From: Mobula hypostoma
Taxonomy: Eukaryota
Length of the DNA: 64,000 nucleotides
Assembly (NCBI RefSeq): GCF_963921235.1
Contig: NC_086108.1
Location: 82,648,001-82,712,000 of the forward strand
Reading direction: 5' to 3'
The notes under the pieces were generated by a model. The model was not told the DNA's origin and did no database searches. It worked only from the letters and a program-made list of their open reading frames with translations. Within the stretch, counting starts at the first letter, position 1. Each line of letters begins with the position of its first letter. The translations under genes and the position numbers were made by a program. This document shows positions 3,279 to 35,239 of the stretch, one piece after another.

Positions 3279-3318
3279 GTAGGCTTACATTCCCATGTGA
3301 ACACTGATTGTTATAGAC

Positions 3319-4578: not shown

Positions 4579-4829
4579 CTTCTGTCACGTTTGCTCACTG
4601 CAAAGTGGAATGGACATTAAAGTGTAGGTAACTAGTAAGCATATTATTTGTTAAATGGGATAACATAGTAATAAGAATAGAGAAGAACGCTAAAAAGTAG
4701 TAACACAATTTATTACTAACACAGCAAATAATGGGCCATCCCAAATGTTAAGTGTAAGACGTCTTATACATGGGGCTATTCCAGATGTCTTCAATTGTCA
4801 AAATGGCGTTGTTTAATTCTAACCTGATA

Positions 4830-5170
4830 TGCTAAGCTCCAGTACCGACGGGCACTTAGCAGAAAGCAAAACGCAGTCCGATTCAATTTATTTCCCTTTT
4901 TCTGCCTAAATGGAGAGTGACCCACAGGGTGACAAAATGTTTCAGCAACAGTGTTATCTATTATTATCAAATTATCTGTTGGGGGAAAAGCCATTAATTA
5001 TGAACCAGGCGATTACAAAGAGGTAATTGGCATAATTACCTCCAGCCTCTTTAATGTAGTGTGACTGATGCGTTTTTTTGTCGAATTTAATCAGGCGATT
5101 TGTTTCGTGTTAAGAGACATAAATCCGGTTAAACTCAAACTTTAATTGCATAATTACTGAAGGATATCTA
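4830..5170. promoter_or_regulatory. Enhancer/CNE-like block rich in homeodomain cores
   Basis: Unique sequence with dense TAAT/ATTA cores (ccattaatta, tttaattgcataattac) and a perfect palindrome GAGGTAATT-ggcat-AATTACCTC at 5020-5042. Conservation cannot be tested here. Confidence 0.4.
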
Positions 5171-6545
5171 TGTCTCCTCCATTGATATTGATTCATTCTA
5201 CCCATCCACGATGACGTACTCCGTATGTACAGATTCTTGATATGAAACGTATTTCTCTACAGTGAGGATGTATTAAACTATATTTAATATAGAATATGTA
5301 TATATTCAAATTGTCCCCTATAAACATAACACCCCTTCGAGATTATGCCTTGTATACTTGTCTCTTAAACTGCCTTTTATTGATTCAGTAAATCTGCATA
5401 TAAATGGGTGCCGTTGCTGTGTCTCCCCAGGGGACTCGGGAGAGCGAACAAATTTAACCATAATCTTGGGTACTGAAATGTGGAACATCAATGATGTCAA
5501 ATAACCCTAATAGATTGTTAAAATGTTTCAGCACTAGCACTGCATATTCAAGGTGAAGCAATAATTTAGTTTAAGAGATTTCTCATGGAATTGGATCGCA
5601 AATAATTTCACCACTCCAAATTTGGGTCTCTGCAATGGAGATTTTACGTTTCTCTAGGTTAAGAGTTCCACAAAGTTCTTAAACCGAATACACATTCCGA
5701 TGTAAAATGCAGCTGAATTGTTTTTTAAAAAGTGGTTGAAGAAATTCGGTGGCAGAGGCGGGTTGACAGAGACAGGACTCGATGTCAAAAGAAAACGTGT
5801 AGCCATATAATAAGGGGAACGATACAGAGAGGCGGAGTGGGAAGGGTGTGGGGGTGGGATGTGGCGGGAGCACTGGTAGCAGAGATGATCAAAAACGCGA
5901 AAGATGGTGAAGCCTTGCAGTCGTTAACGCGTAAAGGTATTGTTTTGACAATTGCTGTCCCGGGAATTGTTTTAAACAGAACTGGCCGTGGAGGGGGGCC
6001 GGGCCCCGAGCAACTCCAGTAGTAGAATGACAACGTCCTTAAATCCATTAGTAATTAGTAGCACCGCAACTAATCCGAAATATCTACAGATAATCAGCAG
6101 ATAACTCGAATGAGACATCGAGTTTAGAGCTAATGTGAACATAGCGGATTCGACATAACTGAGAATTAGCGTAATAATTATCTGCTAAATTCATTGGAAA
6201 TGGAGATGGTCATTTTTACAACACGCCTATATATTTTAAAATAATGAAATACTTGGCATATAGAATTTGCTTTGCCATTTTATTCCTTCGTATGTCCCGG
6301 GTCAATTGTCCTTTGCACCGACTAAATAGGCTTCCGTGCTTCATTATGTATTTTCCGAGTGTTGTTCCCATAACAAACGAAAAAAGAAATAAAAGTTACT
6401 AGTATCCGCGTTTTCATCTTTAAGATGATCCGTTGCTGGTTTGTGCAGTGTTAAAAGTTTGGCATGGCGAAGCTGCGGGGAGGGATCCTTGCTCCGGGAC
6501 ATGATTATATATTTATTACTGTCATCTACATCTGCAAAGGCAAAT

Positions 6546-6746
6546 GTAACGGCTGCGACGATCTGGAACCAAATATACAGTAATCCTAATCGAACTGCAT
6601 AAATCAAATCGAGAGAGAAAAAAATGGTTGAGAAATGACACCGAAGCTGGAGAAATGTAAGTCTCTTTTTCAGGCAAAACACCCGACTTTTGACAGCCAA
6701 GGGAAGCGTTTCTGTAATATGTCTGTATCCGTTTTGTTATTTTAGG
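6546..6746 (-). pseudogene. Possible decayed homeobox exon (speculative)
   Basis: After acceptor ttcctgttacag, the minus strand gives in order KRIQTYY..L, EKETYIS, RFDL/AVRLGL and IWFQ/RRSRY. Needs two 1-nt frameshifts plus larger indels to align to a 60-aa homeodomain. Confidence 0.3.
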
Positions 6747-7774
6747 CTGTAACAGGAATATATTCATACGCTATATCTTGTCCTTCACTCAATCTCTTTT
6801 CGGGAAGTTCGGATACATTCTTATACAACATTCATTGTAATAGTGTGTTTTTGCTTTATTAAAATCACAGCAGATTAGGTAAAGTGTTTTTTAATATTTT
6901 ACAATGGAAGATAATAAAAGAACATACAAAACTTAGAAATACAGTTAAAGAGTTGTTTTACATTCCAAAGGGGTTTGTACACATAATTGGAACATTGGCA
7001 ACTTTAGTTTAAATAATTAACTTGTGATAATTAAATATTTTAGGGTGTAGCTTCAGGGCAAACAATATTCAAATGTGCTAATTATACTTAATTGAGATGT
7101 TTTCTCGCTGTCAAATTGCGCTAAAGAGTATGTAATTGTGGGCCGTCACTCCAAGTGAAATTGAACGCAATTAGATTCAGATGTAGAATTAAAACACGCA
7201 ACAGAATTAATTGTTTCTGATTTGTTGTTAATTATTAAATAAAGTCAAACGAGGTTTGGTTATTTACTGAGCAAACACGAACGCTGCTTCTACGTTTTAA
7301 ATCATGATTTATAGAACTGCCCTTGAATTAGATTAAATTCAAAACGCTAGGATTTGCCACTTACACTGGACCACTCTGTTCCTTAAGTCTTTGTATATTG
7401 GGACGAAAGTAATTATTTATGGACACTTGCTAAACAGTTTAAAAAATTCATTGAAATGAGATTTACAGCAGCGCCCAGGAATGGTGATTACTTCGACAGA
7501 GGCGATTCCTAAACATTTACTTTGCTACAAAGTAGGCCAGCGTTCAGCAGTCACCTCTGTATCGGGATCATCGCCGTAGGGGCGAGTTTGGCAAGATTTA
7601 TTAGATATTCCTTAAAATATGCATCCTGATCCCCATTTGGCTCAGGACCTAATAGAAGTGGAAATAGCTTTCGACTGCAGTGCCGTTCATTCATCATCCT
7701 CTCTGACACTAGGTTGATTCCATAACCACCTCCCCAACCCCCCACAAACCCTCGCATCACCCCCACATTATGTG

Positions 7775-7778
<4 letters not shown>

Positions 7779-7810
<32 letters not shown>
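7779..7810. repeat. (AC)16 microsatellite
   Basis: Read directly. Confidence 0.95.
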
Positions 7811-7812
<2 letters not shown>

Positions 7813-10214
7813 ATGTGCCAAGAGGACGCACCAGAGTTTTGTACAGTTTCAGGATTATCTGCTTCTTTCTCGTTATTTGCGCGGCACACTCCTTACTCCG
7901 TCCAGCTTTTTTTGTCTTTATTTTGTTTTCGTTTTCCTTCTTGCCATTGCCTGTCCAACTATTCCTTTCCTGGTTTCGCGTACGCCGTCCGATACGTGTA
8001 CGAATAACGCAACACCTACACACGTACCTACCCATGTTCAGGCATTGTGAATATTGGATCCAAGACGGCATATAGCCAATACCATAAATATTTGATGTTG
8101 TATAGATGTTTACTAAAATTATTCAGTCAAGTTTTACTGCGTGCATAATATGCTTATATACAGAGATGTCACTACTTTTATCCTCTCTTTTTTCACTGTG
8201 TATGTATTTATCTTAGAATGCTACTCATCTAACTTATAATTCGTTTCAGACGTTGGACCTCTAGTTATTTAGAAATTTGCGCAATTGTCTAGTTCCCTGT
8301 CGTATTCTCTTGTTCCTTGGTATCCTATCCCACAAACTAAATCTCGGTTTGCCGAACCTGTAAAATATACCCCACTGCTCTATTGTTGGTATCAGTTGCT
8401 CCCATCTTTCCCCATTACATGCATTTAGCTTGTGTGATACAGAGAGAGGAGTGCGAGAGTGCGAGATAGAGAGGGGAGGTAATCGGGGTGGGGGGGGGGG
8501 GACGCAGTGGGCAATTGGTTGATCATCAGGAAAGCAAAGGCCAGGTACATGACCAACCAGGGCAGATTTACCCGGTAATTAGAGGCGAAATCGGCAACAA
8601 GGCAGCTATAGATATTCTGAATAACGGCGAGAGCACTTTAAACTGAACCATACCGGCTTCATTTACAACTTCATCACACATTCGTGGCTAAATAATCTTA
8701 CGTATTCATGTTTTTGCAACAGTAATACCTGTTCACATTACCAGTTTGTAAGATCGATTTATCATCTATTCATCCAGCCACGCAAATTATTATTTAGTAA
8801 ATTCAAACTCACAAAAAGTCATTAATTTCTTTGAAATTCCGCGAAGAAAATTGGAACCGACCCACATCACGTCTGATTACTATTTAATTAAAGTTTCCCA
8901 TTTAATTACTAATTCGCAAACAACTGATCGCAAAGGCATTGCGACTCGGGAGGGAAGTATATCTCATCCAGAGAAACGCTTCAAAGTCCAGCTGAATTTA
9001 CCCAGATCTGTCCCATAAGTTAGCCGACTTCCCCCTCCACATCACTAGGGTTGCCTTAACCCTCCGCTTTTCAGTCTTTTTCTCCTCAAACGATCAGAGC
9101 CAAGTATTGTATAGTCTTCGCAACTTTCTGAGGAAAAGCGAATCGGGAACCAACCACCTTTTCCGTCATACCCGGGATCTCCCTTTCTGTCCAAAGCGTT
9201 TCAACAGAACACAGGAGGGGAGTTTAAGGGTGTATTGAAGATCTAGCATCAGAAAACAAGGCATTTGCCCTGAGTTGACGTCTCATGAACTCAGACAGTC
9301 TATAAATTTAAAATCGTAACACGCGCATCTGTATTCCTTTTCAAATCTTAAAATGTTGATAGTTGCCGGATACGTCAGAAAGCTTGGGGAAGGAAATGCC
9401 ATTCAAGGTTATTTTCTGAATGGGAGGTCTTTTTTTCAGAACTTGTCAGTTTATGAGAAGGTAGGCGCTGCATTTACAGAGCGTTCTAACTAGTTAGTTT
9501 TTCGGATGTCAGGTGGGACACCTTTTTTGTGAGGATGTGTTTGTCTTTTCAGGAATTTGGAGGGGGCGGGACGGTGGGAAACAAGGATAAGTGTACGAGG
9601 TGAGATACTCAATCCAAATACTTGAGATCATCCCATAGATAGCGTTTCAATGCTGGGGATCAGTGTACTTCGCTCATTTCATTCTTCAGTGCGCTGACCG
9701 CACGTTATGAACGGGAAAGTACATCAAGGAAAGAAGAAGGAGTCAAACGTTGGGACCCACGAACAACCAAAATGTTGCCATGGGACGAACACAAATTCAA
9801 CTTGTTACGAAGACAAACAAATCCCAGCTAGCAAGCCTGTAAGTGTACCAAAGAGCAGGGTTTCATTAGTCGGTGTACACGCATACGCAGGTTAAACAGA
9901 TTGCTTTAACGCGTTCCATATTCAAAGAAGTAAAATACAAACTAGTTTTGGTCAGTTCACATATACAATTTAGACTAAATTCTACACTTACCTTTCTAAA
10001 CCTCAATCTTTCCACTAGCCCACGGACGGTACACTCCTTTCAAGGGCCCTTGAATAAAAAGGCAGACAGAATACCTAACAGTTAGAATTCTGAATTGTTC
10101 AGTAAGACAGTTCTGTCGCTTTACTTCTGTCAGCGGACACTCCTGTCTCTCTTTTGGAATCGCTCTGCCTCTCTCTCGGACTCCGTTCCTGTAGTTTACA
10201 TTAGGAAGTTGTAG

Positions 10215-10244
10215 CCAATGATAGGGTATGTTGCCATCTGCTGG
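10215..10244 (-). promoter_or_regulatory. CCAAT box plus consensus CTCF core motif
   Basis: AGCCAATG with CCAAT at 10215-10219. The minus strand of 10232-10244 reads CCAGCAGATGGCA, matching the CTCF core CCASYAGRKGGCR and containing E-box CAGATG. Confidence 0.55.
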
Positions 10245-13200
10245 GAAGTAGGCTGATGCGGGAGTTTAAAACAGAACCACTGGCGTGCTTCAGGAGCCAA
10301 GAGCAAGTCTGCAGCATTTCAATGGTCCTTCAGCATGTCAATCAAAGCATGGTCTCTCCGTCTTCCTCTTACTTCTGCACAAACTTCTTATAAAACAACC
10401 TGCGTCACGTTCCTATGTGCACAGATCAAATCAGCTTCACACATTAAAACACAATAAAGATTTTCTGATATATTTTCGACAAGAAAGACCAACTTCTCCC
10501 CTCCCCGCAGAACAAAAAAAAAGCTCAGCATTTAAACGGGGAGTGTCTACTGTACACGGATATTATTTTCCTGTTAGGAGGGGGTTGTACTGCTTTTGGT
10601 ACAGGGTTGACGAACTCAACCGTTGATTTTATTTGCTTTTCAGATTTGTCATGCTTTTTCGCAGCAGAATGGACGGCTCTAACCCTCTGGATATTGCTAA
10701 TAGAGCCCCGGGTCCTTCCCATACAATGTCTCCCAGCCCTGACGGCTTAAACTGGGATTGGGGCAACACGACGCCATTCCACACACCAAAAAGCTGCCTT
10801 AAAATGACTACTGGTAAGAGGATTAAAGCAATAATGCCCGTCTCTTCTTGATGTGTGCTCGATAGCGTCTCCTTCCCATAGCGCTGAAGTAAACTTTGCT
10901 CCAATATAGGGATGGTAATACCTTTATTGAGTAATAGTTGAGACATTTCTCGGGAAAAGGTTGTTCTGTGAGGTTTGTGTCGAGTTATATAAACTACTTG
11001 TGTAGCTCTGGTTTAACATTGGATTCTTCTATCTTATAGCAGCGCTGAGCTCGGCTTTCCTGATATTGACCAACAGATGTGTTCAGTTTTTTTAAAACAT
11101 TATTTTGCATTTTCATCAAACCTCCTTTCATCTCTCCTTTATTTCTCTCACACCTTTTATTTTCCACAGAGTTCTCTTGTTTCCACGCTGCTGTTGCTGC
11201 CGTTGTTTGGAAATGCGCGCTAAAACACTGCCTGCTTATATGTTTAAGTTTCTGTCTAGCGGGCTCCCTTGTCTCAAGCCAACTGCGGGTCTGAAGAATG
11301 AAAGGGGATTAACTTGTGAACTGCTGAAAGTAGGGACTTAAATGGGCGCAAAATCTCTCAAATGAGTCATTGTGGGAGCCGTTCTAAAGCAATTAAACCG
11401 AGAATAAATTCCTCTCAGCTTTTCCGTAAAGCCAGCTTTCAGTGGGGCTTAATGCATACTAGCGTCCAGTCCATCAGAAGATTTGAAGTAAAATATTAAG
11501 AAGGTTGATTTCTCTAGAACGTGTCCCCCACTCCCTCTACCTTTTCTCACAGTTTTACTTAAAACGTTCAGGACAAGAGAGCTTGCTTGATTCCTTTTCC
11601 AAACTTAGCCCTTTTCTACTTTTTTTTTCCTTTTCTATCTTCACGCTCAGAGTTTCCCCACTTCTTTCGTCCTCTAGTACAAATAGAATAATTTTAGCAG
11701 CCCTACAATAAAATCTTTAATACTACTAACTTGATAGTTTTTCATAAAAATATGTAAAATATTAAAATAGAGAAATAAAAGGACCAACGAAACGCTTCGG
11801 AATTACTCCGAGATGTCTTAGAGTCATAGTCACGCCAACCCTGCTGAACTCTGTCCCCATCCCCCTCCCCCTCCTAAAACAACAACATCTGAAAGTAGAA
11901 AAAAGAATCTATTGGCGGCTGTCAACTAATTAATAGACCTAATCACTTTTACTTTATGAATACATTATGTTTTTCAGTCCTTTGCGCTTTTCTGTCTCCC
12001 GCCTCCTCACCACCCCCCCCCCGCCCAACTTTGCAACCAACCCGACCAAGGGTACCCAACAGATGCTCATTTAAAGGCAATTAATCATTTTGATGTATCG
12101 TTTAAAATTGACTGGTTTCTAGGGACCTCTTCTGACAAGAATAACAAAGCAATTTGCCAGCAGCCATCTCCACGACATGTTATTAGCGCTGGCTTCGTCT
12201 GAGCGGGGCTGTGGGAGAATTAGGCAGCAGGCTGTGTGAATAGATCTACCTGTTAGCGAAGATCTCCTCTCCTACACCTGTACTTCACACACCGACCAAA
12301 AGAAAATCGTTTTATTGATGACAAGAGCCGCCAATTCTCCTTCTAATCTCGTTTAAGAAAGTTTTAGGTGACTGGAATGTCATTTTCTTTCATTTTTTTA
12401 AACAACAGCCCAAAGAAGGAGTTTAAGGTGATTTGAATGTCACAAAGGCAGCGGTGTTCTACATTACTGAATTCATTCGCTCGCACTATCGGAGTAATTA
12501 ATTCCTTTAATGCCGATTTATTGTCAACTTTAAAACCAAATAATTTCCATCCAAATTAATGATCTAGAAACAGCAACAAAATATTATCAGATACTTTGTC
12601 ACGTATTAACACAGATCTTTAATTTACGATTGAGATTCCTATTCTTTAAGTCCAAAAGTGTAATTGCAGAAAATATGTCATAGTCCGACCTATTTTGACC
12701 CGACATCTTCGATGATATTTGCAACAAAGAAGAAAAATAATTTCGCTTTCCAGTCCAAAAGATCAGACAAGATTAGACAAGCCTAGCGCGTTATACTTGC
12801 GTTACAGAAGGGATTTATATTAAATAAATATATACAGCCAGTGCCATTGAATAGAACGTTTCACAATTCGCCGCAATAGGCAAATCATTATTAAAGTACT
12901 TTCCCCCCATAATAACATTTTATGTGTTACTAAATTATTAATTATGTCAGCACCTAAAATGCTCGGCATATATTTTGCATCTAGAAAGGAAATTGGTTGG
13001 CGTTTAGGCAGTGGAACTCTTCTATCCTGAGTCTGATCTTGTGATGATTTGAAACTTCTTCGTTTGAAACTTGACCTTTGCACTGAAAACACAAACTTGA
13101 AGGAACTTCCTGACATTATTTCCCATTTCAACACAATCTACCTTTAGCTCTAAATCAACCTGCCCCTCCAGTTTACACTCTATAATTGAATGAAAAGGAT

Positions 13201-16200
13201 GTTGTAGCGGAATCTTTACCTTCTCCGTAAAAGGTCATCAATTACACGAGATCATGCGTTTCCTTAAAGGTGTACTGTCTAATGTGTGCCTGCATATGTG
13301 AACATACTTGAGGAAAATCTAACCATTGTCTTTCCACTTTAAACATGTAATGCTTCGAAACAAAATAATTCTAAGCAAATAGGCACACGCTCGCGCAGTT
13401 TCTCAATAATAATACTTGTTTTTGTCCGCTGTGAATTGTAAGATAGTCATATGTTCTGTGTTGTACACCTTCTAGGGTCTCACTCGATTAAACACTAGCG
13501 CTGCGTAGAAGTAGATATGACCATATAATTTCACATTAGATCAAATTAGCACATCCACACTTCCAACATGAACTTATTCCTGCCGTGTATTGCTTCAAGT
13601 TACAATCAGCTCCTAGCAGAATTCCGCCGAGTTAGGGGATAATTCGCCCAGGCGTTTGATTCTCTGTTTTTGTGCGACTCCCTCTGTTTCGTAGGCTTCA
13701 TTGGCTGCCTTGCACGTCGAAATTCGCGTTAACCCTAATCCAGTAGATTACCTGAATCACACACACACTCCACTTTGTAATACATACATATTCTTATTTT
13801 CAATAGCGAACGCTTATTCTGTAATGGGGGATAGGAAAGCATCATCCTGTTTCTTGAATTGTGCAAATCGTCTGAATTAAGAGTTACACTTACAGAGAGG
13901 GCTCCCACAAATGGTGTTGTTGAAATCCTGTCTAAAAATTTAGTTTGTTTAGTTTTAAGTCATAAAAAGTGAAAATAATATCACATGACGTGAAAGTTCC
14001 ATACGTGGTAAAAGTTACTAAACACTAAACAAACTAAAATGAAAGATCTATAGAAGTTGGAAGATTAAGTAGTTAAAATGGTGCCTCAAAGTTTGTGGAA
14101 ATGGGATTCCATTAAATATTCGGACAAATGCTACAACAGGAATAGAACAGAATTCTTTCTAGTTTACGGGGCAATGGGTTCTTGCCGCTTACGCTTTGCT
14201 CTTCGCAAATGTATTCCTAAAAGAGGAAACATTTACTTTTCTAATTAGACTCAACCTTGATAATTAGGGGAATATTCGCAACTTGATGACCGGAGCCCGG
14301 GGTTAGAATTGCTCCCGATCAACAATAACCTCCTCTTTACTCGTCTCGTTTCAGTTGCAACAAGTGTTCAGATTTATACCAGGCGCAAATACATTTTAAA
14401 AGCCAAGCAAATATTAAAAAAAACAGGACGAGGGGTTTTAAATGAGCTGCGCTTATCTGAATTAACAGTAAATATATTTATCTCGGATTGTACTTGAATG
14501 GCAAACATGTGTACTCCAAACATATACGCATGTAAGTATTTGCCCTATCCTTCTGCCTCATTCACATCCCCATCGGACTACTGAAGTGCGCCACGAAGTC
14601 CCAGACTGACGAACAGCTGTTGGATTTTAATAAGACCGGAGGTATGTGTTTGATTTGTCTTAGAATTTCCACATCCTCTGCCAAAACACTTCCAACGTCA
14701 TCTAAGTTTGTTTTCCTAAATTGTTGGTAACTACTAGATGGACATATCTCATAGATACGGTGAACGTCTTTCTGTACCATAATGCAATTATGGGGAAAAT
14801 GTCTTTCATTTGAGTATTTTACTTCGTAAGAGGGAACAAGCAGCCTGTCGATCTGCTCGGTCTAAATGTTTGGCGTTTACCTTGGAGATGGAGTGGTGCT
14901 CCTAAGGCGGTTCAATCATACTCGTTGATATCCGGGTTATTTTCCAACCTGTACTAATTCTAGATCCAGTACAAATTTAAAGTAGGAATAATATATTCTG
15001 ACAAGCCTTTGAAAATATTCAGGATTGTGCGCTGTGTTTGTATGTGCATTTGCGTTTGTGCGCGCATTTGTCAACTTGTGTCTCAATACATGTGGCCTGC
15101 ATTTGGCTTGCGTTTGCCTAGGGGTCTTGATGCATTTTGGTGTTACGTTGTTCTGTTTTTTTTTTGCACAGAGGGCACTGTATTGTAAACAATCGTAGTC
15201 AACACACTTTGACAAGACTATGAAGGGCTAGCGACGTTAGTCCATGCCCCAATATCTTACAGATACGGCATAGTATAAGTTAAACAATTATGATAACATC
15301 AACAGCACCTCTGTGATTTCTCATAACAGTAGACGTAAAGCAATTTATGATGTTCTTAGGGGAAAAAAGCTAGTCCAGATACAAATGCCCGCTATCTAAG
15401 TGACATTTCTGATATATTAAAAAAGCGGAACGTTGGAAGGAAGCAACCGTCACTCAAACATGAACATAATATATAAAGGACGTTACAGAAACACTTCCTT
15501 GTGCACCGACGTCAAAAATTAATATATTCAACGTCGTTTACCCATTATTTTAATATTTGCATCAGTATTAAGTATTACAATAACATTATTCGTTCGTTAT
15601 GGCTATAATTACATAATTTAGCAAACTCTCCCTCAGAAACACATACAGCACAAACAGCTTTAAAAGAATGTGAATACAAGTAAAGACTTTCTTCCTTTGA
15701 TAAAGTATTAAGAAGCACTATCCCTGTTATACTTTGACTCGTACAGAATAAATTCTCGAGATCTTAACGGTTTAAAGAAGCATGTGAAGGACTTCATCAT
15801 ATAACAGTTTTTTTCTTCTAAACTTGACTATGGAGAAGAGAAAAATCCATATTGCTGGTCACTGGATTTGACGGCAGTAGAATTTACATGCGGATTTGTG
15901 GCTAGGAGCAACCTAGGCAAGCCTCCCATATCCATGGATTTGCACCTATCTGCCTCAGAGCAGCACAAGGAAGGTCTTTGTAAAACCCTAATCCTGAAGC
16001 AACACAGCTTTACCAACACGAAGGGATAAAAGGACGATAAAACCACAACGTTATGGTGGCAAATCTTCTCTAATCCTTCGATTTAGCAAAACAAAGCCTC
16101 TTGCTATAATCCGGTATTGCTTTAAAAAGCTCAGATTTTGTTTTGGTAAGAAGATGATCCAAACGACTAATTTTCTGAGAGACTAACGCACTCTGACAGC

Positions 16201-17160
16201 CTTAAAAAGACAAAAAAAAGAGAGAGAAAAAAATAAATGCAAACCTCATTCTTTTACTAGGTTTCAATTCAGCTTTTTGGAACTCTGCAACAGGGAAATA
16301 TCAACTTGTCAGCAATATGCGGCAAAGGGGTTTAAATGCCGTCACTAGGAAAATCTGCTCTTTCCCCCCAAACTCGGCTCTATGGCTTGAAACCCTTTTG
16401 ATCATTTTTAAAGCATCTTAAAAGCTGTTACAAATTACTGCCAAGAAATGGCAGAAAGAAAAAGAATCAATTATCTAAATGAAATGAGTTAAGACTGAGA
16501 ATAAAAGCGAATATCATCAATAAGTAATTTGATCTTTCCGTTTCGTGTAAAGTTGCACATTTCAAGACATATTTATAATTCTGCACACAGTTGACATTTG
16601 AACTATCTAACTCACGGTGAACTGTTCCTGTCGGTGCTGCTGGCCGAATGCCTCAGTTGGTACAATGCTACAGAAAGGCATTTTCCAAGGATATTTGTGC
16701 TTTATAAAATACATAATGCATATGCGCAAATTCTGTATCATTCGCTAATCTTGCAGGGTAGTGTTAGGACACATTTTATGTATCTACAGCGTGAAGGCAT
16801 TGCTTGCACGTTGGAGGCTTTTTTTTGTATAAATATTTGGCTATTTTTAGTGTGGATACATATCTGCGTGGTTGAGATACGCATTTATATGTATATGAAT
16901 AGAGAAACGTCTCCGCGCCTAGTGTCTGAATCTCTTTTTGCGCCAAGGACATATTAGAAAATCAAATATCTAGCACTGCAGCTTGGATAATTAAATTAAC
17001 GCTGCTGTTTAAAACTTCAAACTGTTTGGAACAGTTTGTGAAGCTATTGGAAAACCTAAAGCGCATTCGTCAAACTACAACGTCTGTGGGCTCAGAATAA
17101 CCTTATGTCAGACGTAGGTCTCATACACCACACGCAGACACAGACATAGATATACCCCCC

Positions 17161-17166
<6 letters not shown>

Positions 17167-17192
<26 letters not shown>
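17167..17192. repeat. (CA)13 microsatellite
   Basis: Read directly. Confidence 0.95.
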
Positions 17193-22796: not shown

Positions 22797-23300
22797 CACC
22801 CAGTAGCCACTTTATTTGGTACACCTGTACACCTGCTCGTTAATGGCAATAGCGAATCAGCAACTCAAGTGACAGCAACTCAATGCATAAAAGCACGCAG
22901 ATCAATTGTTCGGACCAAACATGAGAATGGGAAAGAAATGTGATCTAAGTGACTGCCTGGTTTGGGTATCCCAGAAACTGCGGATCTCCTGGGACTTTCA
23001 CGCACGAGTCTTCAGAGTTTACCGAGAATGATGCGCAAAAAATAATCCAGTGAGAAGCAGTTCTGTGGGCGGAGACCCCTTGCTAATGAAAGAGGTCAAA
23101 GTAGAATGGCCAGGCTGGTTCAAGATGACAGAAAAGCGACTAACTCAGATAGCCACGCGTTACAGTAGAGGTGTTCGGAAGAGCATCTCTGAGCGTAGAG
23201 CACGTCGAACCTTGAGTTTGATGGGCTACAGCAGCAGAAGACCACGATCAAACACCCAGCCGCCACCACAAGAGGTGCCCAATAAATTGGCAACTGACTG
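22797..23300 (+). mobile_element. Internally deleted Tc1/mariner DNA transposon
   Basis: Imperfect TIRs 'cacccagtagccactttatttggtacacct' and 'aggtgcccaataaattggcaactgactg', followed by TA. Residual transposase TQIATRYSRGVRKSISERRARRTLSLMGYSSRRP (ORF 23050-23307). Confidence 0.8.
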
Positions 23301-25164
23301 TATATGATCGTGTCACGTTAAATCTCCATTCCACCCACACTCTCGCGTAACTGGCTGGGCCTTGCCTCCTAAGATGGTTCGTGAAACTCAGGTTAAGCGC
23401 AAAGGAATCTCACGGCATGTCTTTGGATTAGACATATCACAGTCATCCGGGTTCGACAATAAGTTCCACCATTTCACATAATAATTCCGCCAATCCTATC
23501 TCCTCCAGTTCTATTTCTTAATTCATTCCTTATCCCTTTGCAGTTTACTTCATTTTCTCTATTAATCACTTATCTTTAAGGATTACCCTTCTCCCTTTTT
23601 CTGTTCACCCTCTCTCTAGTTCTCTACATCTTTTCTCTAAATTTGATATCGAGAGACTTTAGTTCTGTTTCTCTGAGTATCGCGAGTAATTTCTGTTTAT
23701 ATCTCATTTGGGAAATGGATTGTTAGCCAGAGTCGTAGATTTAAAATAGGTGACACAAAAGCTTTAGGGAAATTGAGCGCATTTTTCCGAACCAAGTCTC
23801 GACAAATTTGGGATTTAGTACACGATGAAGTGGTAAAATCAGACTTGAATAGAATCTCTGGCGAAACTAGACATGCAATCGGAGGGCAGTAATTATAAAT
23901 TATTTATTGGTGGGGAGTGGATAGAGAATTGATCTTGAGATTAGAAGGGATTATTGTGTAAAACAACCAGGAGAAACGCAACGTGTTGAATGGTCTTCCT
24001 CCAAGCTGTTGGATTCCTCGATAACAGAACAAGGTAGCAAGTATTTAAAAGGTTAACAGTTAATTCCCCTCTCGATTTGTTTCTAAAGCCCTCTAATCTC
24101 TTGCACTTTATTTGAAACAGTGCTGTTCTGTATTTCAATGCAATCATGGTGACATTTTGCCTCGGCGCCATTTTCAGCACCAACCCCAAACTCTTTGTAC
24201 TACTGGTGTACACGAATCAATCGGTCACTGTCATGAGAATCTTCAGCGTCCTCTTGGGCACTGAGTCCGTTCAAGCTGCTGAGTTTGGGTCTTACGGCGC
24301 ACTTGGTTGGAGAATTCCAAGGATTCTCTGGGCGAGGAATGTCATCTTTAGCTTCTTCATCTTACGCAATTTAAGTTGTTCATCAGCATCTCTTCAATGA
24401 CAGCTCAGTTGTAGTTTACGCCAGAGGTCACGTCTAATTAGTTTTACCCACTATATGGTCCACGGAAATTTATTCAAAGATATACAAATACCCTTAAGAG
24501 ATGTTGTAAATAGAATCATGCGTCCCGTTGAGAGAATGCGTCCCTTTTAATTAACCCACAGACTTAGATATCATGATGGAGAACTTTGAACAGGACTACC
24601 TTACAAAAACGCCGTTTAGAGCATGAAAAGGACCACGTCATATTTTAATACCTTCATCCTTAATTCAGAATATGGTCATCCAGATTAGGAGGAGCAATTT
24701 ATATAATATACTCAAACTGTAGAAGTTATTGTCAGATTTCTCTCCGTCCCCAGCAGCAACTGAATTTAAATCAAATCTCGTTACTTTTTCAGCGTGCGAG
24801 AGAAAGCCGGGGGTGGTCGGGACGTTGGGAGGTCGCACAGGTAGAATTATACAGAGGTAACATAAAGGTCTGTGGCTCAGGTTCTCCTTGAATATTTAGT
24901 TATGTACGCGTGCATTGTCTAGGCATACATTGTCAGAGATTGCTCTTGCATCGGTTCTCTTTTATCACCCATCTGTGGTGAATTACTTCCCTTGGAAATT
25001 GGCCAAGGTTTAACGGTAGAAAGCGAGATCTCTAAATTTCTTCATTCAAGCTATTTGTTTCTAAGTTACATCATAGAACATTGCATTGCACGATGGTGAC
25101 AGTGTTAGGAGACAAGGAAGTAATGTGCGTGAACACCTAACATCTCCAAATGAAAATAAGAATT

Positions 25165-25360
25165 AAAATGCAAATACTGTAGGTATGAAGTCAAAGCATA
25201 ACAGATGGCAAGGTCACTCAGCAGGCCAGGTATCCTTTGTGGGTCGAGACAATATGAACATTTTAGAAGCGAGGTCCTTGGTCAGAACTGAAACATTAAT
25301 CGCTGTCCTTTCCACAGATGCTGCTGGCTTGGTGAGAGTTTTTCCCCGTATTTTCCGATC
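25165..25360. mobile_element. Old Penelope-type palindromic repeat
   Basis: Arms 'cactcagcaggccagg...tgtgg' and 'tccacagatgctgctggcttggtgagagtt' of the same family. Confidence 0.5.
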
Positions 25361-25786
25361 ATACAGAATAAGCCGAGTCCTACTGTATCCGATTGAAACA
25401 TTTGTGCAGCTTTTGGGAAACCCTTGCATGTTATAACAAGGATGCCACTTTCTATTGTTAGCAACCCACTTTTGCTGTCCCAGGACACTTTTTCGGTGCA
25501 GTATTCTTGAGGAAAGACAAACCTGACTTGCCTCATCTTCGGCGATCCCGAGAAAGTCAAATTTCTACATATTCAGCATTCCAATAAACATTTTCAAAGT
25601 CTCAGTTTAGCAGTGCGTGAATTCAGGCAATCTGTCTGTGGCCATGGCCCTAGATAAAGCATACGGTGGCATCAAAGCCACACAAATTCCAAGCGAAACA
25701 TTTAATGTTTCAATTGAAATAAAAGAAATAAGAGAAGTGTCGATGTTAGGGGTGGGCTGGTGGAGTGGAAAGCGAGAGAGCTGGTG

Positions 25787-25865
25787 TAGATAAATAGATA
25801 GATAGATAGACAGATAGAGATGGACAGACAGATAGACAGACAGACGGACAGTCAGACAGATAGAA
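25787..25865. repeat. (GATA/GACA)n tetranucleotide repeat
   Basis: Read directly. Confidence 0.9.
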
Positions 25866-27179
25866 AGAAAGAACGAAGAATGGGTGGATGGACGCAGTCA
25901 AAATAATGGGATATGTACGATCCCAACTTTAAAGGTTTCCTGATTCAGATGCAACGGCTATTTCATGATGCGACTCCGTTGATGACTTAGCTGCTGCCCA
26001 ATGGCATTGTTAATTACACAAACCAGAGCTTTAAACAAACAATCGGAGAGTTCCCCCTGTTTCTGACCTAACCTTTAGATTTGGCCTTCGCCTGTGTTCC
26101 AAATATTGTAAATTGAATAGCCCCGGGCTACGCACGTTTGGTTCAGAGTCGCTGCCTCCGACTCATCTGCATCAGCTCAGTAGGGGAGAGGTAAGAAAAT
26201 ATATCAAACATGTTAATCTTATTTAGGGATTGCGTTGAAGTATAAGTAATAACGGGCTTTTATAATTGGTTAATCATATTTTCCCAAAGACCTTATTTAT
26301 TATTTTAAACCTTTAATGCTTTAGCAAGAACACCGTCCTTGCTAATCGCTGCATAAATCTAGTCTGGGGGTTTCAGATTTATTTTCGAAACCGTGTCATA
26401 TTTAATTTTCCATCTAAAGTTATAGATCTAACCCAACTTTCACTCGGCGCAATGTAGTTTGGGATGTGGAAAGGGATGAGAGGCATGACATGAGAGGCCT
26501 GCCATTTACATTGAATCTTGGCGGCGACGCAGAGGTTGTCAAACACACGATGCTGTTTAACTCCAATCCGGAGTGAAGTCTGCTACATCCACTTCCCTGA
26601 TTATAAATTTATAATCAACTTGACAGGAAACATTCTCTCAGGTTGCCGCCCTTCTAACATTCCTAACATCTATGCTCAATTGAACTTTTGATTGCAGAAT
26701 GGCAGATACAGGGGCGAGTGGCAGGACCAGTCACGATTCAGCCTTGAATATTTCTGGATTTTCTATTTAAGTCAAGATACATATTCAGGGGGGATGTTTT
26801 TGCCATTGCCCCATTCGCATCAGATGGAACAATGAAAAGGTGGGAGGAACATGAATTTCAGATTTGATATATATATCACAACATGAGCGGAGTGAATTGG
26901 ACGAGGAAATCAAGTATACCTGTCGCTTTTAGGGCGGCATGAAAATTCTTTCAGAAGTTTTCTTTTGGTGTCCAAACTCTTCTAACATTCAAACGAATTC
27001 ACATTCCTGTTTAATAGTGCGAGAAATCAAATTGCTCCGAGATTGGACTTCACCAACTCAATTCGACTCAACTATCTCCGCTTTCCCATCAATTTGATAT
27101 AGTGTGTATACTCCCGAACGAATAATCTCGTGAACACGAGTTCAAATGTGAAAATATCACATTAGTGTTGAAATGTGCA

Positions 27180-27755
27180 ATCCAGTATGAGTTGAAATCT
27201 ATCCACGTCTAAACTTTATAAAACCTTGACTGAGCTGTGGCTCTTGTATTTTGTAGAGTTCTGATCGCCACACTATAGGGAGAACAAGATTCCTTTGAAG
27301 AATAAGTAGGAATACTGAGGATGTTACCTGGGATAGAGCTTTTCATTTCGGAAACTAGACTGAACAAGTTGAGTTTGGTGTTTAGTTTTCTTGCAACGGA
27401 AGTGGCTGAAGTGGTTCTAAATATACGAGAAGCAAACAGGCTAGATAATAGGAAACGTTCACCCATCGCAGAAAAGCTTAAACCAAGGGGCAATGGGTAT
27501 AGGGAAAAGTGGAAGAGTTTAACGGGGATATAAGAAACATTTATTTCAGCCAGAGGGTGGCAAGGTTCTGGAGCGCACCGCACGTGGAGCTGGTGAAGTC
27601 AGACATCCACAGGAATATTTAGAAGAACAATTGAATCCATGGGAAATAGAAGATTGCTGAGAAAGTGCTAGTGGAGGTAATTAATACTGATAGTTTATTG
27701 GTGGTTAGCATGGACACGATGGGCCGAAGGATCTGATTCTATACACTATGACTAT
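27180..27755 (+). mobile_element. Old CR1 LINE 3' end
   Basis: 'MLPGIELFISETRLNKLSL' and 3' UTR 'agcatggacacgatgggccgaaggatctgattctatacactatgact'. Confidence 0.7.
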
Positions 27756-28809
27756 AAGTAGTCATGAACCAGTCAATTTCTTGTGTTAAAAATCATAGCC
27801 ACGGGAAAGGAGAAGCACTGTGGTTATTCAGTCTTAGTTAAATGCAATTGCAGCCCCCGACCAAAACGATAACTCAATGGTCCCCTGAAATGGCTAGCAA
27901 ATCCCTCAACCGAATTAACCAGTCGAGAAGAAAGTCCGACATCAGGTTTCAGGGCATTTAACGACAGAAAATAAACAGTATTCTTCCTGGCAATGCCCAT
28001 ATCACTTATATAAACACTAGAACTAACAACAAAAATACCGAAGATATTTGTCGTGCTTCTTGCGACTGAATGGTGTAATAAAACTGTCATGGCACAAAAC
28101 TATAACCCAGATGCTGTAGGTTTGAAATTCAATTTTATAAAATAAATTGAATAAATCGAATAATTTGTGGATTGATATAAGCAAATTAAAAAAAAATGAA
28201 ATTCTTTACTGATATACTTCAAGGAAACAATCTGTCATCTAGTCCTGTAAATATTTGGTTGACAGTGCTGAGGACGTCCTTGCCAACGTTTGCCACAAGA
28301 CGTTTAAGGACGCATGGCCGCTTGCAGGACTAGGCCTAGCAGTAACATACCTCCGCCTGTTCACTGATATACGCTGTCATAAGTTCTTATTGTAGATGCT
28401 GAATCGTGTGCTGTCGGGAAACTGTGGTCTGGCCATGGAGATAGAGATTTGGTGACTAGAAAGGAACAAACATTAAAACTCTCTGAGGTGAAGAAGTTAA
28501 CTAAAGGCAACAATTAGTACCCGCAATACCGATGAAACAATTAATACCGCGGTGACAATGGGACATTGAAATGATGCAGAACCATAGAACAGCATCAGAG
28601 TGCCTTTATCTTCAGTACCTTAGAATGAATTGGCATTTGATGCCGTAATCTTTTCTTATTGTGCCGTTCAAAACAAAGGCTGCTTTTAAATTACAATTTC
28701 AAGTTTATATTTCCACGTACACGTTATTCACGGCGCACTGATAAAACATGCAGTGATGTAGCATGGAAAGATGGCCTTCGAATCAACTCATTCATGCCGA
28801 ACAAAATGC

Positions 28810-29020
28810 CTATTAAAAGTTTTTTCTATTTGCCTGCATTTGACCTATATCTCTCTAAAACTTTCTTATCCATGTACAAATATTTTAAATATTGCAATTG
28901 TACTCGCCATTACAACCTGCTCTGGCAGTTCCTTCTATCGACCCACCACCCTCTGTCGTACTCCCCTTTAAATCTTTTCGTCTCGTCTTAAACCTGTGCC
29001 AGCTAGTATTAGACTCCCCT
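28810..29020 (-). mobile_element. CR1 3' fragment, antisense
   Basis: 'acctgctctggcagttccttctatcgacccaccaccctctg...tcttaaacctgtgcc' parallels antisense CR1 copies at ~36240 and ~38820. Confidence 0.6.
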
Positions 29021-32000
29021 AACTTCGCGGATGAGTAGGCACTTTTTACTCGGATCTCTGCTGATGGCATTTCTTTTAAGTTAGAGTCTTCCCATACAGA
29101 ACTCTGGGACATATCTATTTGCCGCATAGGTCCTGTGCGCGGTTTCCGGGGACAGCAAGGCCTCTGAACCAATTAGTGTTCCATTCTGGGAAAGTGTCAT
29201 GTGTTGGCGGATTCACCTCACGACCCGAGCTGGGAACATATCATGGCTTTTACAGTTCAGTGAACCTTGCCACTTGCTGGATTTCATCGCCCCGTGGTAG
29301 TTAGACAGATTTGGAGAATGTAATCACATCCAAAGATTTGGGAATTTGAAAAAAAAAAGGCCCTCCAAGACATGACTGAAGAAAGTCACATAAAAATGAG
29401 AATCTCCCTATATTTTAACTAATGACCAAAAAGTTAGAAGTGATTTAGTTAGGTTATTGCTCACCAAGAAGAGTTAAAAGAGTATTTTAATAATACCATT
29501 TTGCAACCTATAAGATCACAGCTCCTTCGCAACTTTTCAGATTTAATTGAAAAGAGCATTTTATTCTTATCACTCTAAAATATCATAATTACATCTACAT
29601 TACGTACAAACAGGAGGACAGTAACATATGAGCCCTCTTCCACCCTGACATACCCGCAGTGGATTGTCGCCGATGTGTATGCGCATTGTCCATCCGCACG
29701 CAAAGGATTGTAAATGGTTTCACTGGTGCTGAAGAACAGATCCCCGTGAGCGGACGAACAGATTCTGTCTAAAAATATAGATACAATAATAATTATGCTG
29801 TTAGCAATTCCCATGATACATGTATTGTGTTAGCATCACCAAATATAATGGTTGTTCCTATGCTTTATTGTCAAGTTGGAGGACACAATAATAGAGGTTG
29901 GTGCATTTTTATTGACTATTTAAAAATCTGTTTCTATTTACTACTCCGTTTTATATAACTGCTATATTAGAAACTTGATACTTGCAGACTGCTGGAAAAG
30001 AAAATCATTCTATTGTTTGACAACCCAGCGCAGTTTTCGACTAGAAGTCAAATAATTGATATGTCATGGATTACTGCTCCTGCCTGGGCTCAGACCAAAA
30101 CGAGCCACCAGGGTGGAACTCTTCTAACCAGAGTCCCTTAAATCTGGTGGCTGGGGACGAGGACATTTCATTCGCAGTTGATAACAAGCGCCTTCCAGCT
30201 CTTATTTTCCACAAGTAATCTGCCAGTGCAGCCTGCGGACTGCTGAGGCCGTGTTCTTTCTCCGGCCATTGCAAACAACGGTCACCAGTGACCATACATC
30301 ACCTTCCCTTTTTGTCAGGGCGGCCTCCCGAAGGTCTTTTTTACTAGCTCCAAGTGTCGCTAAGGAGCACCAAATGCACATGTACGTGTCAATAATCTAG
30401 CCCCCAAGTCAAGTCAAATAGCTTTGTGAAAAGAGAGAGAGAGGAAAAATGAACAATGCCTCTGGCCCATCAATAGCTGAAAGTCAAGAGGCGTGATAAG
30501 GTATCGATCAAAAGGCAGTGGCGTTTGTTGCAATTTCGGCTCCTTAATGTATGAACATCAAGCAAGAATAAGACCTCATTTTAAACAGTATCATTTGTGA
30601 CAGGATGCTCTCTTGAACCTCGTAGACTGCTGAGTATTAGGACGGAAAATCGCATCAGAAGGTGTCCAGGTGCCTTCAGGGCTGTGCCTTTCTAAGTGCT
30701 GGCTCCCTACAGCACACTTATTCATCCAGTCTTTCGTAAGCTAGCCAGCACTGAAACTGCTATCAAATCGTTTCACTTGCTCCAAATTTCAGCATTGTAT
30801 TAAATATTTCATGCGCTTGTTTAATGCTAACTGGTGGCTTCGCCCGGTGTCAAAGTACTTTAACGCTATTTATTCCTTACCCTTTCGTTTGGGAAGAGCA
30901 GTTAGTCGAATGGGACAGGAAAAAAAACAGATGAGGATCAATTACTAGAATAGCGACGATGTAAAATCTTGCAGATTTCTATGCTTACAAGTTCATTTGC
31001 TCGAAAATATAAATAGAGGTGTTTAATCAATAACATTCTGCTGCCAGACATCAATGTGTTATACGCGTTGAATCAGAGTCGAATTAATCATTGCGGTGCT
31101 CTATTATGTGATCGCTCTTTCTTTTCAGATTATCGTGAACAGCCCTCAGACCCTCAACTATCTAATTGCGACACTGCCCACTGAAAAATAAATCATTCCA
31201 ACTAGTAATTAGACATCAAATCAGGGAATAGTCTACCAAAATAGATATTTAGATCTGTTGCTTTAAGTTGTAGCATATTTTGTTGGGGTTTTAATGAACA
31301 TGTTTAAGTAGATTTAATATGTACGCTCGTCATGAGATAGGAAATCACAAAAAATTATCCTGTGCAATTAATGCATTACAAAGCCTAATTTCATATTTTC
31401 GGTTTAATTTCAGAGAAAAGCGGTCCATTGACATTGGTACAGTTGCTACGTTAACCTTTTAAATGCTGGCGCGAACAGTAAGTTAGATTTGCTCCAAAGA
31501 CATTTGGAATTTAAGTTATCATTATTAAGTAATCCAAGTTACTTCTGTAGTTCTATATGCTAGAACTTAACAATTCTCATTAGACTCGGTAACTGCTTTT
31601 TGGCTTTAAACATATTTTGGCATTTTTAATAGTTTTTGGTGTCAGGCAATCAACTACATAATTCGTTAATATAATATTTTAGATTTTCTGTTCGCAATTT
31701 GAAAATAAGCTCCCAGTCCTTTTTCAAAGCGTGGCCGCGTATATCATCGATGCCAAAAATCTTTACTTTTAATCATTAACATCACAGTGTAATACTATGT
31801 TTGCTGCATTGTTCCAAAGTAAACTTTTCTTTAAAAAGAAGGGCCGGTCGGCAAGCCGGCGTGTGTACTTTTAATTATTATATTTTAATAGCTCGTTCCG
31901 AAGATCTACGTATATAACACAAAAAAAATCACTCACCAGCAAAAGCACTTCATCATCCTAATGAGCTCAGTGTTGTGTGAATCTGAATAAGCTCGCCGTT

Positions 32001-33565
32001 CTTGAATATTAATTGTCGGAAGAGGCTTGGGATGCTGGTTACAAATGGCCTGTCCTTATACAGGAGTCTTGGCCTGAGGGGGTGGAATGCTGGGCAAATC
32101 TTCATTTAGCAAGGTGGTGGTGAGCCTGTCTACGTACTCTTTTTTCTTTTGCTCCCTTGATATATTCAAAGACAACTGCCAGAAAGAGCGCAAAAAAAAA
32201 CTGGACGTGAAATTACAGCAAGAAAGAGCCATCTTGGTGGGCCCTAATCGAAAGGGAACAGGTTGAAATGGGTTAATTAACAGGATAATCACCCAACACG
32301 GCTTAATTTCTTTTCAATGTTTCAATGAGGATCTCATTACGAAGCTTAATGCAAGTTTACAATTCCAAGCATACAGAATGTGAATTGATCGCCAGCAGAG
32401 TGAACATTTACCCACAGACGTGTCTATTTCAGCTGGAGGCTCAGAGGAGGGTTACGGTTATAAAGTTGTGCAATAGAAACTAAAGCAAACAAAAACATGC
32501 TTCCTTTTCATCGGGGAAGGTCAATAATAATTAGATGTTCTTTAAAAAAAGATGCTCATTTTCTGAATGTACACACACTGTGGGTAATAATTCAAAATGT
32601 TGCAATTTTCGTGTGTTGGGTTAAAATCTTACTGCTTACCTACCAGATTGGATTTTTTTTTACCTCTTGTGATAATCGACTCCTTTTCTGGCCTGGCAAC
32701 GTTAAGGTGCTATTGGATTGGAGAATTAATTGGACTACTGGGAGAACAGTAAAACCTCCTTATTGTTTTTAAATAGCACCTCAGTCAAAAATAACCATTA
32801 TAGCATCGGATAAAATATATGGATGGAGCGACCTCCATAATATTATAGGAAATACAGCTGGATATTATTTCAATGTTAATTCCGTCAAATATATGGTTGT
32901 GTTTAATTGTTATTCGTTCGCCTTCTTAATAGACACAGGTGAGGGAACATGTAAGGTACCTGATATGCAAACTGACTTTTAATTATTAATAATCTGTCAA
33001 TCAGTAAGGTCGGTCCAGTTTCGGTGCTGAAATATACGTTAATCATAAGAAAATCGACTTGATAACTAAATAAACGGTAACTAGATAGGGGCAAGGTCTA
33101 TTTGAAAAGCCGACTTTACAAGGAAGGCTGACAGAGCAGGTGCGCGCAGAAGGCATCCCGGCAAGTAACGGCACTGGCACTAGCTGGGGAGATAAAGGGT
33201 CTCCCCTTGCGAAGAGTAGACCTGGATACTCTCCGCTCTGTCAGCTTTTCCGCTTATGAAACTATAAATCTTACAGTTTATAGAATTATCGACTGGCTGA
33301 GGCAGATTGTTTTATTTTGCTTTAATCCGGCGTTAACCCCTGCTTTACAAATTGCACTTAAAAAAAAAGACGTGTTCTCAGTTAAATATCATCCCCTATT
33401 AACCCGCTGCCCTGACCGTTTATCACGTACTGCCCTGGGGGACTCGTCTGATCCCAGCGAGAATGGTGTCACTCTTGATCGGAACAGTCTGGGAGTCATT
33501 TAAACTCATCCCAAATGCGGGTCTTTCTTCTCCCTTCCCCCTCCCCCGCCTCGGACAAAAAAATC

Positions 33566-33617
33566 GAGAGCGAGAGAGGGAGGGAGAGAGAGTGTGTGTG
33601 TGTGAGAGAGAGAGAGT

Positions 33618-33659
<42 letters not shown>
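33566..33659. repeat. Compound (GA)n/(GT)n microsatellite
   Basis: Read directly. Confidence 0.95.
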
Positions 33660-33662
<3 letters not shown>

Positions 33663-35239
33663 AGAATGAAAGAATGAAAGAATGAATTTTGGAGCGGACA
33701 GATTTTAAGCCGCAGCTGTAAGCTTCTATGTCTGCGGTAAAGAGTTTCTTGCTGGGCCCAAGTAGCCATGTAAATAGTTGGGCTGAACTCTCAGCGGTAG
33801 TTCCATAGCTCAGGGCTTCCCTTGTCTCTCTCCCAGAGGCTCTCATCAACTCCCTAATGTTTTCTTTTCGGGGGCCGCTCGGAGAAGAAATGGTGGAAAG
33901 CCGGGAAGGGAGGGTTCTGCGGGGAGGTAAATGGTCCCAGAGCAGCATCTGCCTCACTGGTACGACCACCTGGTTCACCACACTAGCACCAAATGACAGT
34001 GAACTCTCTACTGATTGGTGACGATGCCTTAATAAATGAGTGCAGGGAAATCTATTAATCGAGGGAACAATCTCAACTCGGGGGGAATTCAAGGCCGATT
34101 CTCCGGCCCTGGTGTGCGGATATAGGGGCCTAAAGACACTAAAGATAATGCAATAAAGTTTGCAAACAGAGCGGAGTTAACTCTGTTATGCCGCACAGTG
34201 CGATTCGTACACAACACGATGCCCCTCTTTTCCTGCACATGATATTTACCCTTGTGATTTTATACCCATAAAAATCGCTAACGTTGTGCTTCCCCCTACT
34301 TAGAACTTGTATATCGTCACTTATCTTCTGCTTATATAGCTTTATAACGCAGTGTAATGTTATAAACTGTTTTGTTTCAAAACATTCCCTTTAGTCGCCT
34401 ACACGAAGAAATATGATTGCAGTCTATAAAGTAAAATGTTCAACATCGTGTTAAATCTTTGTTCGGAACTGAAATTGCATGACTCGAGCAGCACAAATTG
34501 TTATTTAATGACATTAAAGACTGATATTGATTTTTTTTCAAATTCTGTTTATAATAATTGACAACGTACATTCAAGGAAAACTAAACGGCGAGATAGATA
34601 CTGTCTGTGACTCTTTGGAGAGACGCTTTTCTTCAACGTGTTACATGGCTCTGTCCCAGTATTTAGTTTTCTCTGTTTGTCGCGACCTACACTGCCTATA
34701 AAATTGCCTTCTCGCACTAGGGTGTTCCGACATCAGCTGTTCAGCACTTCATTTTGCGATCAATGGAACAAAATATGGTCTTATGACAAGCCCAGCAAAG
34801 CAGCGATAGATCAGAATAGGCTATAGTTAGGCTGAACATTAGAGAAGTCAAGGACATTTGACGCATTTGTCAAAGTCCTCATTGACCCTCGACCTTTAAG
34901 GTTCCAAAGTATTGATTCCCAGCGTCTGGACTCAATTGGCCTGAAGATATCAGAAGAAAAAGCAGAGCTGTTGGACTGACAAGACTTAATAAAAAGACTG
35001 GATCGATGAGAAATTATTTCGCTTGAAAAAAAAAACAACCGTAAGCCATGCATGAAACTTAAGCACAAATAGGGGTTTATGGAAGAAGAAAACGTGAGCA
35101 ATGTTCATTAACATTAACTGGGGATGGGTGATGGGAATGGTTTTCAAGATGGCCAAGTCAGATAGATCAATAATTATACTGCTGTAACTTCACATGGCAA
35201 ACAGATTAAGAGTTTACTTTACAGTGCTTTTAATGAAAT

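Follow-up and report, generated by a model that had tools for sequence, protein, structure and literature searches.

What keeps some 30 kb of AT-rich DNA rich in CpG when no gene can be recognised in it? Here we address this question for a locus of the ray Mobula hypostoma, within a stretch of 64,000 nt (hereafter the window; assembly GCF_963921235.1, contig NC_086108.1, positions 82,648,001-82,712,000, forward strand). The DNA of the window is vertebrate-like, with many remnants of long and short interspersed nuclear elements (LINEs and SINEs). A CpG-retaining domain that is real and well bounded occupies about half of it. With moderate confidence, we read this domain as a gene-free DNA-methylation canyon, likely unmethylated in the germ line under the hold of Polycomb and TET, that would regulate a developmental gene beyond the window from a distance.

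CpG retention is specific and bounded

Dinucleotide counts over 4760-35100 gave 877 CpG, an observed/expected ratio (o/e) of 0.713 at a GC content of 0.40. The ratio is 0.197 in the left flank (1-4759) and 0.222 in the right flank (35101-64000). The o/e of TpG plus CpA is 1.09 in the domain, compared with 1.31 and 1.29 in the left and right flanks, respectively, and strong shifts between domain and flanks are confined to CG, TG and CA among all 16 dinucleotides. GpC o/e is nearly constant (~1.0 in the domain and the left flank, 0.91 in the right flank), and the effect is therefore CpG-specific. GC content is also near flat (0.40 in the domain versus 0.37 and 0.42 in the flanks). The dinucleotide profile, together with the repeat fragments inside and outside the domain described below, points to reduced CpG deamination relative to the surroundings, a property of methylation valleys and canyons. 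The domain does not qualify as a classical CpG island (GC of at least 0.5 and CpG o/e of at least 0.6 region-wide), its GC content being 0.40; just 12 patches of 200-360 bp within it pass the island thresholds.

A first-pass annotation of this DNA had described a CpG-retaining, AT-rich domain with a CpG density 6-13 times that of the flanks, and had proposed computing CpG o/e as a check. The computed ratio sets the domain far from the flank values (0.71 versus 0.20-0.22) and its AT-richness stands, but the density contrast was overstated: 28.9 CpG per kb in the domain against 6.7 (left) and 9.7 (right) amounts to 4.3-fold and 3.0-fold, and a 5- to 8-fold contrast appears only against the poorest adjoining stretches (5.5 per kb in 1-4000; 3.7 per kb in 35101-37000). 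Both edges had been called sharp, which is true of the right edge; the left edge is a ramp of about 1 kb. The extent of the domain is as follows.

4530-35100, no strand: whole CpG-retaining domain, likely a germ-line unmethylated canyon; ~30.5 kb, from CpG o/e and change points
4240-4840, no strand: left edge, gradual; change point at 4,530 with likelihood interval 4,240-4,840, the rise spanning ~1 kb
35020-35220, no strand: right edge, sharp; change point at 35,100 with its likelihood interval, just ahead of a repeat

The repeat directly beyond the right edge lies at 35,235-35,802 and has a second copy at 58,551-59,126. The left edge is spanned by single contigs of two other organisms, labelled B (4389-7764) and C (4495-5524), and this bridging speaks against an assembly join. 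Elsewhere in the right flank, a patch at 60700-61260 is richer in CpG (o/e 0.42 per kb, with two patches passing the island thresholds) and is probably a younger repeat.

CpG retention follows position

Repeat fragments of comparable kind lie inside and outside the domain. Those inside have a CpG o/e of 0.56 (82 CpG in 3,128 bp) and those outside 0.19 (57 in 6,274 bp), an odds ratio of 3.5 (p 4e-12) that includes fragments whose bounds were judged by eye, along with an inside fragment (22,790-23,300) lacking an outside counterpart. Across ten non-overlapping aligned repeat pairs, the inside copies hold 31 CpG and the outside copies 13. Because repeats inside the domain keep their CpG, the property tracks position and not the origin of the sequence.

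In a cartilaginous fish methylome, the genome and its transposons are reported as pervasively methylated, with transposons hypermethylated (PMC5437953, available text). As the fragments inside the domain nonetheless retain CpG, the domain appears to escape germ-line methylation. These mutational footprints make it very probable that the domain is hypomethylated in the germ line.

The domain is poor in transposons

Repeat content was assessed by placing contigs of three other organisms on 600-18,850 at 80% likeness; remnants less than 80% alike escape this detection. For block 1 the test is genome-wide: across three DNA runs, all 23 bins of 4,863-18,850 have single-copy depth (at most 23), whereas 6 of 7 flank bins have depths of 345 to 766,000. 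At this likeness, which older and more diverged remnants would escape, 4,863-18,850 qualifies as a transposon-free region of at least 10 kb. Self-matching sequence makes up 2.6% of the domain compared with 17% and 22% of the flanks. The domain is arranged as follows.

4863-18850, no strand: block 1, 14 kb with no high-copy repeats; CpG o/e 0.783 (4800-18860), rich in TAATTA, slow divergence
18904-19205, + strand: long simple repeat rich in GA, separating block 1 from the repeat-bearing middle
19478-29026, no strand: middle part with old SINE- and LINE-like fragments, at least six, 58-87% alike to flank repeats
19478-20069, ~21190-22150, 25149-25340, ~27200-27779 and 28735-29026: middle-part fragments, some bounds by eye
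~22790-23300: probable DNA-transposon remnant in the middle part; CpG o/e 0.65, weak below-cut-off match to Pfam HTH_33
29027-35100, no strand: block 2, 6 kb; CpG o/e 0.72, with a promoter-like or enhancer-like GC- and GA-rich end at 33,000-34,200

As the middle holds repeat fragments, the domain is transposon-poor and not transposon-free. The earlier description of the whole domain as transposon-poor is thus borne out, the six or more old fragments of 19,478-29,026 included. That description also named two long stretches without recognisable transposons. The first is confirmed by the 23 single-copy bins; for the second, block 2 (29,027-35,100) has no match to the repeats of its own window, a weaker test than that applied to block 1. 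GC content reaches 0.48 in 33001-34000, and a (GA)47 tract lies at 33566-33659.

The remnant at 22790-23300 is probably of a Tc1-like family. The class names given to the middle fragments as SINEs and LINEs are in part our assumption, and the Pfam matches there (RVT_1, HTH_33) are weak and below cut-off. Within the middle, a local duplication (20750-20868 and 21732-21850) is 86% alike over 119 bp and 95% over a 94-bp core. The right flank contains stacked LINE copies at 44000-48924, including a frame for reverse transcriptase at 45966-46781 that matches Pfam RVT_1 (E 5e-27), and at ~52500-55900 a decayed element that presumably derives from a long terminal repeat retrotransposon.

No gene is recognised in the domain

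We scanned 247 stop-to-stop frames of at least 45 codons; frames with either end in 18,700-19,300 (GA repeat) were excluded beforehand. None of the 247 reaches the Pfam cut-off, and six have weak matches below it (E up to 0.05). Searched against Rfam, the domain gave nothing at gathering score and, by E-value, just weak matches far below that score. Outside GA repeats, the longest stop-free frames (134, 129 and 170 codons) fall inside the range of shuffled sequence (119-276). For the 170-codon frame (33667-34176, - strand) no relative was found, none of 58 candidates having scored. Sixteen transcription-factor and signalling motifs match no more often than in shuffles, and among these motifs and the frames of at least 45 codons no decayed coding exon of a developmental transcription factor was recognised.

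Splice sites were scored with a rough frequency matrix. By this matrix, strong donors, strong acceptors and exon-like pairs are at chance on both strands; there are 5 and 2 exon-like pairs versus 2.6 and 3.2 expected (standard deviation ~2), and single strong splice-like sites are present. In blocks 1 and 2 there is no consistent strand skew. A non-exhaustive scan of the 29-kb right flank recognised no exon. By the coding and known-RNA tests, for frames of at least 45 codons, the domain shows no recognisable gene, and the earlier statement that no gene is visible agrees with the Pfam, Rfam, motif and splice results.

One exon candidate deserves separate mention. At 10645-10812 (+ strand), an open 56-codon frame lies between splice-like ends and bears a weak likeness to one RCC1 repeat. 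Its best 150 matches are multi-stretch, at 31-52% identity, and three of the four checked are RCC1-repeat proteins. The frame has no Pfam match, none of its stretches scores above 6.4 bits in PDB chains, and no relative was found. We judged the likeness to be chance: it scores 4.7 bits, 1 of 40 shuffles scores higher, the family was picked post hoc and there is no partner exon.

Divergence from relatives

Divergence was counted over 600-18,850 from the contig pieces listed, eight per run, with gaps uncounted and short flank controls. Against organism C, 523 of ~11,960 positions in the listed pieces differ in the domain (4.4%) versus 104 of 1,310 in the flank (7.9%; p 1e-7). Against organism K, the corresponding counts are 97 of 1,649 (5.9%) and 187 of 2,035 (9.2%; p 2e-4), with four flank pieces that matched other repeat copies excluded. 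Conservation above the flanks, another property of valleys and canyons, is thus significant in two of three relatives for 600-18850. The most conserved compared part is the following.

4495-7762, no strand: 3.2-3.7% differing letters in organism C, listed pieces

Ten other organism labels share 0.20-0.63 of the words of 4800-14790. Four runs presumed to be RNA share 0.00 of those words. Transition/transversion totals (465/288 for C, 171/109 for B) were set aside, as they combine flank and domain. In one of the four presumed RNA runs, compared over 600-18,850, all eight listed pieces lie in a flank repeat (842-1006), and bins at 6,690-8,516 have a depth of 6-7 that probably stems from short matches of deep contigs; neither was used as evidence of expression.

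Candidate regulatory sequence

TAATTA, a homeodomain-type motif, occurs 21 times in block 1 (4800-18860) versus 7.4 expected (2.8-fold), 7 times in block 2 versus 3.9 (1.8-fold), and 14 times in the flanks versus 11.8. It is the sole clear excess among 14 motifs tested in four regions. The densest TAAT/ATTA clusters (~4800-5300 and 6800-7400) lie within the part least diverged from organism C (4495-7762), which we propose as containing candidate enhancer elements. Promoter-like GC- or GA-rich patches are found at 5,741-6,040, 8,421-8,660 and 33,061-33,620. One further site was noted.

10233-10244, - strand: exact match to a CTCF core consensus

CTCF-like sites are not clearly enriched window-wide (5 matches versus 2.2 expected; 7 of 100 shuffles reach 5).

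Several smaller features were seen in both blocks. The segment 11900-12560 resembles by eye a conserved non-coding element and has TAAT clusters. Predicted folds comprise an unbranched AT-rich hairpin at 12501-12640 (- strand, z ~-3.4), a branched fold closed by a 16-pair stem at 33115-33260 (+ strand, z -3.6, chosen by eye, with no Rfam match in 32500-34500) and an unbranched long hairpin at 34541-34680 (+ strand, z -3.4). These z values (~-3.4 to -3.6) do not go beyond chance, because the folds were singled out by eye or from among 757 windows covering both strands. A perfect inverted repeat with 15-bp arms and ~70 bp spacing lies at 13939-14038.

Weighing the explanations

The first-pass annotation had placed the locus with Polycomb-type developmental domains and had offered three origins: an orphan regulatory domain, an lncRNA (long non-coding RNA) locus or the remnant of a lost gene. 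Low deamination, CpG-keeping repeats, slower divergence and the TAATTA excess all fit a domain of that type; Polycomb itself we infer. Of the three origins the first fits best, with a human geneless canyon as precedent, and the lost gene is unsupported.

The proposed canyon could arise and persist in the following way. Methylated CpG decays to TpG and CpA, so a long lack of germ-line methylation would let CpG persist or re-form throughout the domain. Selection on clustered transcription-factor sites would exclude most insertions. Unmethylated CpG would recruit Polycomb and TET, which would in turn maintain the state, as is described for published valleys (PMC5806489, available text). The block would loop to a distant developmental target, in the way that the human geneless canyon contacts HOXA.

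Several observations weigh against this reading. In organism B, the closest relative, the listed pieces differ at 182 of 14,331 positions in the domain (1.3%) and at 50 of 3,305 in the flank (1.5%; p 0.27). For organism C the flank control consists of one contig piece, and well-conserved pieces may be over-represented among the eight listed per run. The word shares of organisms C-K, nine labels with 0.20-0.29 each, are about those expected from a uniform 4-5% divergence and so give no sign of conservation deeper than among close relatives, such as with sharks or bony fish. In aligned repeat pairs, CG inside faces TG or CA outside at 13 sites and the reverse holds at 9, a difference that is not significant (p 0.52). 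Other homeodomain-type motifs are not raised in block 1 (TAATGA 0.45-fold, TTTATG 0.76-fold). Finally, nearly every large human canyon overlaps a promoter or exon, which favours a hidden transcription unit a priori; the left flank in view is also no longer than 4.5 kb.

Such a hidden unit could take the form of a broad unmethylated promoter of an lncRNA, or of the non-coding or very short first exon or exons of a gene whose remaining exons lie beyond the window behind a long intron. Precedent is on its side: in the available text of the sources, genes are overlapped by most canyons (10.1101/212928) and by 78% of zebrafish transposon-free regions that span at least 10 kb (PMC2241635), and non-methylated islands contain 45-64% of lncRNA starts (PMC3583005). 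Within the domain, the three promoter-like patches and the single strong splice-like sites would suit it. Strong splice sites and exon-like pairs that, by the rough matrix, are no commoner than chance on either strand, the lack of consistent strand skew in blocks 1 and 2, the lack of an Rfam family and a 29-kb right flank in whose non-exhaustive scan no exon was recognised all point the other way. We regard this explanation as unlikely, yet leave it an appreciable share because of the human canyons that overlap promoters or exons and the short left flank in view. It is doubtful that the domain is instead the regulatory and chromatin shell left behind by a developmental gene, with the coding exons decayed past recognition. 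Its size and make-up do match domains that are reported usually to cover a transcription-factor gene (PMC8941758, PMC3583005, available text), jawed vertebrates have differentially lost duplicated genes (PMC10115646), and a repeat-bearing middle between two repeat-free blocks could mark relaxed constraint. However, the 16 transcription-factor and signalling motifs are matched no more often than in shuffles, shuffled sequence yields frames as long as the longest ones here, no Pfam match rises above cut-off and no relative was found for either of the two frames searched.

Foreign CpG-rich DNA whose CpG has yet to decay (a decayed large mobile element, a viral insertion or an assembly chimera) would account for the sharp right edge, the AT-richness with high CpG o/e and the scarcity of host repeats. 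This origin is already largely refuted, and we hold it to be highly improbable: in each of organisms B and C a single contig runs across the left edge, ten other organism labels share words of 4800-14790, and blocks 1 and 2 are without long frames or mobile-element domains. Decaying CpG would also raise divergence, yet the domain diverges less than the flank, and old host repeats in the domain keep CpG too. Equally far-fetched is a CpG excess arising from base composition or GC-biased gene conversion under equal methylation. A few local GC-rich patches accord with it; the near-flat GC content (0.40 versus 0.37 and 0.42), a GpC o/e that is the same as in the left flank and strong shifts confined to CG, TG and CA do not.

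The gene-free canyon therefore remains the reading that we favour. In a bolder version, to which we give little credence, it would be an ancient gene-free Polycomb canyon common to jawed vertebrates. Possibly it would then be the trace of a developmental gene that disappeared following the vertebrate genome duplications, its unmethylated state outliving the gene and being imposed on transposons that landed later.

Comparison with known systems

Gene-free canyons are rare, and they make it possible to tell what a broad unmethylated domain does apart from the gene that it usually covers; the best-studied case is human. A literature search, with subscription papers mostly outside its reach, found no gene-free canyon described in cartilaginous fish. 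The present domain is legible from its own DNA in an AT-rich, slowly evolving genome, so CpG o/e scans across sharks and rays could catalogue such domains and address their age and a possible origin from lost genes. The central prediction can be tested on public skate fin MethylC-seq data (PMC10115646). As a single locus, the domain is of moderate interest.

The human geneless canyon (GLS/GLC) is 17 kb long, lies 1.3-1.4 Mb from HOXA and loops to it (10.1101/212928; 10.1101/2020.04.16.017533), and its deletion is reported to lower HOXA expression (same sources; the canyon is mentioned again in 10.1101/2025.10.30.685561). According to the available text of 10.1101/212928, large human canyons nearly all overlap promoters or exons. 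The ray domain is likewise large and without a recognisable gene (30.5 kb here, 17 kb there). The human canyon contains CTCF sites; the ray domain has one exact CTCF-like site. In the human canyon, low methylation, trimethylation of histone H3 lysine 27 (H3K27me3), looping and the deletion effect have been measured, whereas in the ray domain all of these are predicted from sequence.

Methylation valleys of 5-60 kb are described as conserved across vertebrates (PMC8941758, available text), with low deamination, conservation, homeobox motifs and upkeep by Polycomb and TET (PMC5806489), and zebrafish non-methylated islands as having high CpG o/e at background GC, many of them intergenic (PMC3583005). 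The ray domain resembles these in its size within 5-60 kb, its signs of low deamination, its slower change, its TAATTA excess and its background GC, as in zebrafish. Most valleys cover a developmental gene, whereas the ray domain has no recognisable one, and the valley sets in the cited texts are without cartilaginous fish.

Among orthologous transposon-free regions that span at least 10 kb in zebrafish, 16% are reported to be without an exon, for example two in a gene desert by ZIC3 (PMC2241635, available text). Block 1, 14 kb without high-copy repeats, resembles these non-genic regions; unlike them, it sits in a wider CpG domain that spans repeat fragments. HIRE1 and HIRE2 of mouse Hoxa2, described as geneless long-range enhancer clusters (PMC10241789, available text), are gene-free regulatory regions of tens of kb, as is proposed for the ray domain, and this type acts over more than 1 Mb. 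They were defined by active chromatin and deletion, whereas the ray domain is known from its sequence alone. In every sequence test run, the ray domain resembles the known systems, and it is likely a new example of a known, uncommon class.

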